Shown here piece after piece: positions 47,048-47,551 of a stretch of 48,734 bases of DNA. This DNA comes from a virus. Taxonomy: Duplodnaviria > Heunggongvirae > Uroviricota > Caudoviricetes. The DNA is taken from the IMG/VR virus record IMGVR_UViG_2703718802_000011. One strand, 5' to 3'. The notes below the pieces were generated by a model. It searched no databases, was not told the DNA's origin, and saw only the letters and a program-made list of their open reading frames with translations. Position numbers and translations under genes: made by a program. How positions within the stretch are numbered: position 1 is the first letter of the stretch; each line of letters starts with the position of its first letter.

Positions 47048-47068
47048 AACCTGCTACGGCAGGTTTTT
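47048..47068 (+). terminator. Rho-independent terminator after ogr
   Basis: Stem aacctgc/gcaggtt with loop tacg, followed by TTTTTAT. Confidence 0.6.
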
Positions 47069-47551
47069 ATTCATCTGGGATCTCACCCGTTTCAAGAAAA
47101 TGTATAAAGCCAGGCTCATCTATGATGATTGTGCCTTTCATCCGGGCTGCCGATACTTTTGATGGGCCTGCATTGTAACCGCAACAGAGCATCTGAAGGC
47201 TTTGGGTTACAGAGGTTCTTACCGTTAATCCTTGTTCATTCGCCTTATCAACCAATCTTTCTTTATCTGCTTTCTTAAATCCGGTGAAACATACATCGAA
47301 TGTATTTTTTTTTTCGGACCAGACTGCTTGGTGAGATGTGAGTAGTTTTCGGGGAGGAATGACGCGCACTCCTGAATGGCTTGTTCTGGTGAATCGTACT
47401 GTTTAAGAATGCGGTCTTTTCGGAAGGTTTTTATTCGATCGGTGTTCTTACAAATGCCCTGTATATGATTTTCGCTATAACTGATGCTCTGTATAGAGTG
47501 AACACCGATACGACCATTTGCATTGATGTAAACAAAGTGAAGTTCTTCCAT
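47067..47551 (-). pseudogene. BRCT-domain cargo gene interrupted by a frameshift in an A10 homopolymer
   Basis: Two overlapping minus-strand ORFs (47225-47551 and 47067-47369) change frame exactly at the T10/A10 run 47305-47314; the downstream part 'VCFTGFKKADKERLVDKANEQGLTVRTSVTQSLQMLCCGYNAGPSKVSAARMKGTIIIDEPGF' matches the BRCT pattern. Confidence 0.55.

Follow-up and report, generated by a model that had tools for sequence, protein, structure and literature searches.

A probable slippage-generated frameshift (A8 to A10) in a WYL-like/BRCT accessory gene of a 186/P2-like prophage

Close to the right-hand end of a 48,734-nt sequence of a tailed phage (IMG/VR record IMGVR_UViG_2703718802_000011; we refer to this whole stretch as the window), a gene is split into two overlapping reading frames at a run of ten adenines, which raises the question of whether the split is an error of sequencing, a genuine inactivating mutation, a phase-variable switch or a site of programmed recoding. 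Read on the minus strand, the window holds a 108-aa open-reading frame (47551..47225) and a second, BRCT-encoding frame which ends at 47067, and the change of frame sits exactly at the A10 (T10 on the plus strand, 47305–47314). The initial annotation had described this switch, and when we re-read the sequence its coordinates, peptide fragments and account of the frames were all correct. Setting the run to A8 or A11 in silico joins the two frames into one, of 160 or 161 aa, respectively. The features of the locus are:

47067–47551, minus strand: frameshifted allele of a 160-aa WYL-like/BRCT accessory gene, the intact form of which is WP_000391794.1 (phrog_2561)
47305–47314, minus strand: A10 homopolymer, the frame-change site; its normal length is A8, encoding P79-K80-K81 of the inter-domain linker
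47225–47551, minus strand: 108-aa open-reading frame translated from the A10 allele, a WYL-like Sm-fold domain (residues 1–74) plus an out-of-frame tail; identical to WP_244507817.1
47067–47304, minus strand: BRCT-domain coding part, in the −1 frame relative to the start codon and without a credible start of its own
47558–47562, minus strand: Shine-Dalgarno-like AGAGG, 6 nt upstream of the ATG at 47551 (direct reading)

In a homopolymer scan of the window the T10 was the longest run, the next longest being 8 with none of 9. Independent translation of the BRCT half was considered and rejected, as no start codon has a usable Shine-Dalgarno sequence: the GTG at 47369 has an AGGA only 4 nt upstream, and the internal TTG and ATG codons have none. 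On the opposite strand (47282–47314, plus) an AT-rich hairpin together with the T10 scores as terminator-like; it would be weaker with the usual T8 and is probably incidental.

The split gene lies just inside one end of a prophage, and its surroundings are:

12789–12818, minus strand: attL core copy, which with attR bounds a prophage of ~34.9 kb
46777–47040, plus strand: ogr/Delta-like late activator, convergent with the gene (open-reading frame and RefSeq annotation of an ortholog)
47048–47065, minus strand: terminator-like hairpin between the gene and ogr (hairpin scan)
47639–47666, minus strand: strong terminator hairpin that follows ssrA directly, lying phage-side of the att core and ~88 nt upstream of the gene's ATG
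47674–47703, minus strand: attR core of 30 nt at the 3' end of ssrA, with its copy at 12789–12818
47675–48037, minus strand: ssrA (tmRNA), the integration target
48734–48252, minus strand: smpB, at the end of the window

The prophage carries 186-type CI and Int, gpA, and a full P2-type morphogenesis set (portal, terminase, capsid and tail genes, D and ogr), and by this gene content the host element is a 186/P2-like prophage (Peduoviridae) in ssrA, otherwise intact. In the circular phage the order would be CI, Int, a 363-aa open-reading frame, attP and the WYL-like/BRCT gene, which converges on ogr and D. The gene lies just beyond attP and in the lysogen is therefore placed beside ssrA, so that integration cuts it off from the CI-int transcript, as in other ssrA-integrating phages. 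A search of the interval from the ssrA terminator to the gene's ATG gave no sigma-70-like promoter, and expression in the lysogen may be low; if so, selection would be relaxed and slippage alleles could persist. The 363-aa open-reading frame itself (12890–13981, minus strand), between the integrase and the attL core, matched nothing in Pfam or PADLOC and occupies the place described as a minor ‘integrase-att’ cargo hotspot of P2-like phages (PMC13586616); at the same place strain 2012EL-2448 has a different hypothetical gene of 222 aa.

By megablast the locus was present in 188 of 5,426 complete E. coli genomes, with nearly all matches two bases shorter than the query. The records that we opened had an A8 tract within a single 483-nt CDS (WP_000391794.1/WP_000391795.1), named ‘hypothetical protein’ or ‘BRCT domain-containing protein’, and in related genomes the A8 locus lies between ssrA and ogr, the same placement as in the window. 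Intact homologues are exactly 160 aa long with A8, which bears out the earlier expectation of single open-reading frames of ~160 aa. As A8 is normal, and as the strains closest over the locus have the window sequence minus the two extra A's, the window allele is a +2 allele.

To survey tract lengths in complete records, short queries were ranked so as to put long or short tracts on top. A8 was the length in nearly all of the ~174 complete E. coli records covered, and >1900 contigs have it too; exceptions among the matches listed for the complete records were A7 in ET734, TW10598 and a small contig of 13P477T, and A6 in a second ET734 copy, with no A9, A10 or A11 among these listed matches. Exact look-up in a collection of 15 billion proteins, counting clean A7, A9, A6 and A10 products only, gave a wider spread. 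The intact A8 product was found on at least 1000 contigs and its ESY variant on 922, the 107-aa A7 products on 85, 42, 20, 18, 10, 10, 7, 6 and fewer contigs (about 200 together), the 91-aa A9 product on 40, the A6 product on three and the 108-aa A10 product (WP_244507817.1) on two, whilst the in-frame A11 and A5 products were absent from this collection. A7 alleles occur on at least five protein backgrounds which are also known as intact alleles, implying that −1 slippage is probably recurrent, and the A9 allele was found on the exact protein background of the window, which makes a passage from A8 through A9 to A10 in two +1 steps plausible. Out-of-frame lengths at low frequency on several backgrounds mark the run as a recurrent slippage hot spot. 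The many 107-aa ‘truncated’ clusters were rejected as evidence of switching; most of them (P0063, P0076, P0091, P0101, P0109 and P0074) have several frame changes each and look like noisy or decayed copies.

Whether the A10 is genuine was judged from independent assemblies and from the quality of the surrounding sequence. An artefact, with a true tract of A8 lengthened by two A's through miscounting of the homopolymer, would fall in the classic place for indel errors, and A10 occurs in no complete RefSeq E. coli genome among the matches listed; furthermore, some complete genomes with A7 or A6 have other frameshifted phage genes, as in ET734, where the copy of the gene is annotated ‘frameshifted’ and the neighbouring tail gene likewise, suggesting noisy assemblies. 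Against this, the 108-aa product is encoded, with A10 in each case, by two contigs that Logan assembled from separate SRA runs (SRR1816751 and SRR23524040), and it is a RefSeq protein. Both Logan contigs are 34,899 nt long with their first base exactly at the att core, and they have in common one SNP relative to the window; in the three A10 sequences, the window and these two, the tract length is invariant at the level of consensus. The closest complete E. coli genome is 99% identical over no more than 8.8 kb, falling to about 97% across the whole prophage, and over those closest 8.8 kb the window has no further homopolymer indel, the one other indel lying outside homopolymers. The remaining prophage open-reading frames are intact, with the sizes annotated in related genomes, and +2 would be an unusual error. 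Recovery of A10 in assemblies of separate SRA runs indicates that the allele is probably real, with the reservation that the independence of the two runs might be partial, as one of them could underlie the window's own assembly. We consider an artefact very improbable, and the sequencing indel offered by the initial annotation as one option is unlikely given A10 in two other read sets.

The protein which the A10 allele interrupts has two domains. The intact form matches phrog_2561 over its full length (E = 2e-77), and its AlphaFold model (pLDDT 92) predicts a five-stranded barrel with two helices (residues 1–74), a low-confidence linker (residues 71–80, pLDDT 68) which holds the run, and a C-terminal beta-alpha-beta-beta-alpha-beta-alpha domain (residues 84–155) superposable on solved BRCT domains. 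The window sequence scores 19.8 bits against Pfam BRCT (PF00533), below the gathering cut-off of 21.3, whilst 39 of 55 homologues match at E < 0.01 (best 2e-6) and the relatives P0172, P0175 and P0254 score 33–54 bits. T89, G90 and K131 are invariant in the alignment of 55 homologues, and we take these to be the residues of the BRCT phosphate pocket (Ser/Thr-Gly after beta1, Lys in alpha2). The BRCT assignment of the C-terminal half, first made from its sequence pattern, is upheld, whereas the domain preceding it had been overlooked, as had the partial rescue by transcriptional or ribosomal slippage discussed below. In the predicted model this N-terminal Sm-like five-stranded barrel is closest to solved WYL domains. 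The window protein has no match to Pfam WYL (PF13280) at E ≤ 1, but four of the 55 homologues do at E < 0.01 (best 1.5e-5) and the longer relative P0254 scores 22.8 against a cut-off of 21.8, and we therefore use the term ‘WYL-like’ for the domain.

The family is large, a profile search finding 196 clusters at E ≤ 1e-30, a number rising to 880 at E ≤ 1e-10, and ten longer relatives have no Pfam domains in their extra regions that might point to fusion partners. Searches of NCBIfam and PDB sequences matched the BRCT part only, in LigA, a DEDDh exonuclease family and RFC1. Family members are annotated ‘DNA ligase’ or ‘putative exonuclease’ in NC_049342.1, NC_008201.1, NC_070909.1 and PHROGs, an identity we reject as over-annotation from BRCT similarity; unlike the single BRCT domains of LigA and RFC1, that of the 160-aa protein is not joined to any catalytic domain of ligase, clamp-loader or exonuclease type. 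Membership of a defence system was likewise rejected, PADLOC matching the C-terminus of PDC-S48 at the level of BRCT similarity only, and SspE weakly. By analogy with the WYL domains of CapW, DriD and PafBC and the BRCT domains of RFC1 and LigA, the protein probably has a lysogeny-related role in which it would bind ssDNA, DNA ends or phosphate groups. It differs from CapW, BrxR, DriD and PafBC in that it has neither wHTH nor WCX, is 160 aa long, pairs WYL with BRCT, and is encoded by a phage next to CI, not beside a defence operon. Makarova et al. (2014) list WYL with BRCT among the domain combinations they observed; in the literature searched we found no paper linking BRCT to P2-like phages or Peduoviridae, and the gene is unmentioned in two papers on P2 hotspots.

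The polymorphism of the run invites comparison with the contingency genes of Haemophilus, Neisseria and Campylobacter, in which, as here, a coding homopolymer is polymorphic among isolates and toggles the frame. Under such a reading reversible slippage would switch the WYL-BRCT protein ON (A8, A11) or OFF (A7, A9, A10) in lysogens, as bet-hedging for a costly or toxic function, and lengths from A6 to A10 are indeed all present in natural isolates, with the recurrent events implied by A7 on several intact backgrounds and with the run as the longest in the window. However, the tract is short compared with contingency genes and one in-frame length dominates, A8 making up about 90–98% of occurrences, and A8 lies below the ~9 nt at which bacterial A/T runs become markedly slippery (PMC1088944). 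The A10 sequences do not vary in length, and the in-frame neighbour A11 was never found. Nor is the tract conserved among homologues: in the alignment of 55 the linker is variable in length and sequence between two conserved domains, and the Lys-Lys for which the run codes shows no conservation. Homologues in Yersinia, Vibrio, Klebsiella, Citrobacter, Erwinia, Tatumella and Plesiomonas, among others, lack the run, as do those in every other genus examined; a linker homopolymer of ≥7 occurs in none of 20 homologues from other species, the gene of Yersinia phage MLG42 (73% identical) reading AAG CCT AAA ACC at the linker and that of Vibrio phage PV94 also lacking the run. Its position in a variable linker and its absence in other genera imply that the run is not a conserved slippery site. 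We regard a contingency locus as unlikely; of the phase-variable on/off expression suggested earlier, the length polymorphism (A6–A10) stands, whilst the dominance of A8, the absence of the run in other genera and the invariance of A10 speak against switching. On the sequences compared, the E. coli linker run remains an incidental, lineage-specific A8 that acts as a slippage hot spot.

The A10 allele might alternatively be designed to yield both a WYL-only protein and full-length WYL-BRCT by slippage or −1 frameshifting, as in dnaX or Citrobacter rodentium tssM1. The run contains A_AAA_AAA in the zero frame at the junction of the open-reading frames, A10 exceeds the slippage-prone length, and a −1 shift or one additional A would restore the full-length protein with one extra Lys, for all of which there are precedents (PMC1088944, PMC4256274). 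The resemblance to tssM1 (A11) and to the 9A/9T-disrupted open-reading frames of Baranov et al. (2005) extends to an A-run of ≥9 exactly at the junction, to restoration of full length by one added A in the mRNA and to an upstream frame encoding a folded domain alone. In tssM1, however, the split is the native state and both products are required, whereas here it is a rare allele, in three sequences against thousands with in-frame A8. The out-of-frame layout is not conserved, nearly all relatives having one in-frame open-reading frame, and homologues outside E. coli lack the run. No Shine-Dalgarno-like stimulator was found within ~15 nt upstream of the run, and the 60 nt downstream fold at −5.3 kcal/mol, the sole structure being a weak AU-rich hairpin abutting the run. 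With neither run nor split layout conserved and no stimulator, the evidence argues against programmed recoding as well as against a selected contingency tract, and recoding by design appears to us scarcely credible.

We consider it likely that the window carries a real, heritable A8 to A10 (+2 nt) frameshift allele, loss-of-function and possibly leaky, of an accessory gene in an otherwise intact 186/P2-like prophage. The pseudogene, or inactivating mutation, that had been among the options proposed fits best, with A8 as the norm and A10 recovered from two other read sets. Under this reading the linker codons CCG-AAA-AAA-AAT, confined to the E. coli lineage, create an A8 run prone to replication slippage, from which A6, A7, A9 and A10 would have arisen repeatedly in the population, the window allele probably by two +1 steps. 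The A10 allele would then encode the WYL-like domain followed by 27 aa of nonsense tail, the BRCT domain being lost, leaving a loss-of-function or altered-function product. A minority of full-length protein (161 aa, with one extra Lys) may persist from A10 as incidental leakiness and not by design: in silico, one A added to the mRNA or a −1 ribosomal shift at A_AAA_AAA gives the full protein plus one Lys, and such rescue is possible because A10 exceeds the ~9-nt length for RNA polymerase slippage and the run includes this −1 shifty heptamer. Bacterial RNA polymerase is known to slip on A/T runs of ~9 or more (Baranov et al. 2005, PMC1088944), and about 20% of full-length TssM1 is recovered through an A11 run (Gueguen et al. 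2014, PMC4256274). Two points count against a slippage allele, namely that +2 is rarer than ±1 for a single slippage event, and that a few percent of out-of-frame alleles, spread over several backgrounds, would be compatible with selection for switching as well.

P2-type neighbours were found at 26 of 48 loci in a collection with one genome per species, and synteny with the window extends to six enterobacterial genera and to phages MLG42, PHL101 and PV94. In close enterobacterial relatives the homologue converges on ogr-D-U and lies ~125 nt downstream of ssrA in all five cases with upstream sequence, whilst in more distant genera CI is immediately upstream on the same strand, with gaps of 8–50 nt, and Int often follows downstream. 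In Yersinia phage MLG42 the order is CI, Int, att and homologue, in Mannheimia phage PHL101 CI and the homologue are immediate neighbours, and in Vibrio phage PV94 CI is followed by the homologue, gp03 and Int. The arrangement with the gene 8–50 nt after CI on the same strand was seen in Rahnella, Acerihabitans, Brenneria, Parasalinivibrio, Hafnia, Vibrio and Mannheimia. This spacing suggests co-transcription, and possibly translational coupling, with CI. Recurrence in the CI/int region implies an accessory member of the lysogeny module and not a random insert, and the description of the gene as ‘cargo’ accordingly stands in so far as the gene is accessory (188 of 5,426 E. coli genomes), but not in the sense of a random insertion, as it recurs in the CI/int lysogeny region across Peduoviridae.

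In PHL101, PV94 and many prophages the homologue follows the repressor CI on the same strand with gaps of 8–50 nt, recalling the genes co-transcribed with phage repressors in lysogens (lambda rexAB, 434 hex), although neither in sequence nor in fold is it related to RexA, RexB or Hex, and the E. coli 186-like gene differs in lying beyond int and attP, separated from the CI operon by integration. It is conceivable that the WYL-like/BRCT protein senses ssDNA or DNA ends for the phage and is genetically coupled to CI across Peduoviridae, tuning induction or protecting the lysogen from superinfection, and that the poly-A heterogeneity in E. coli (ON at A8 and A11, OFF or WYL-only at A7, A9 and A10, leaky at A10) is selected; we hold this combined proposal to be quite unlikely.

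The frameshift itself is of little import, being one more slippage allele at a coding homopolymer; events of this type are familiar, and RefSeq already contains the intact protein as well as the truncated product. The real upside is only in the protein family and its linkage to CI, a widespread uncharacterised WYL-like/BRCT module which in many P2-type prophages sits directly behind CI. The ‘DNA ligase’ and ‘exonuclease’ labels in phage databases stem from the BRCT domain alone and call for correction. By analogy, a fold of the damage-sensing type joined to one of the DNA-end/phosphate-binding type at the lysogeny switch would be a reasonable experimental target, for which nature already supplies knock-outs in the A7, A9 and A10 alleles.

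Variation elsewhere in the prophage was also seen. Next to a G8 run in the tape-measure gene (44730–44738), a substitution in the SRR23524040 Logan contig lengthens the run to 9 without shifting the frame, representing either genuine variation or an artefact of poly-G sequencing. In 2012EL-2448 (locus 7158–7670, corresponding to ~41605 in the window) a 2-bp deletion outside homopolymers truncates the tail-tube gene, annotated as a partial pseudogene, whilst the copy in the window is intact at 171 aa. The classic P2 cargo hotspot between replication gene A (19758–22181) and the portal gene (26373–27413) holds a two-gene cassette of PADLOC defence candidates on the plus strand, PDC-M03A (24687–25601, E = 2e-122) and PDC-M03B (25598–26338, E = 3e-93).

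To the left of attL, positions 1–12788 of the window belong to a second integrative element in tandem at ssrA, which may be a defence island and which contains:

3703–4764: NA-iREase2 protein
4764–5819: 351-aa open-reading frame
5819–6724: RelA/SpoT-like nucleotidyltransferase, with a weak PDC-S33 match
8136–9565: two ParB_N/RepB-like genes
9555–11117: large serine recombinase
11394–12767: tyrosine integrase
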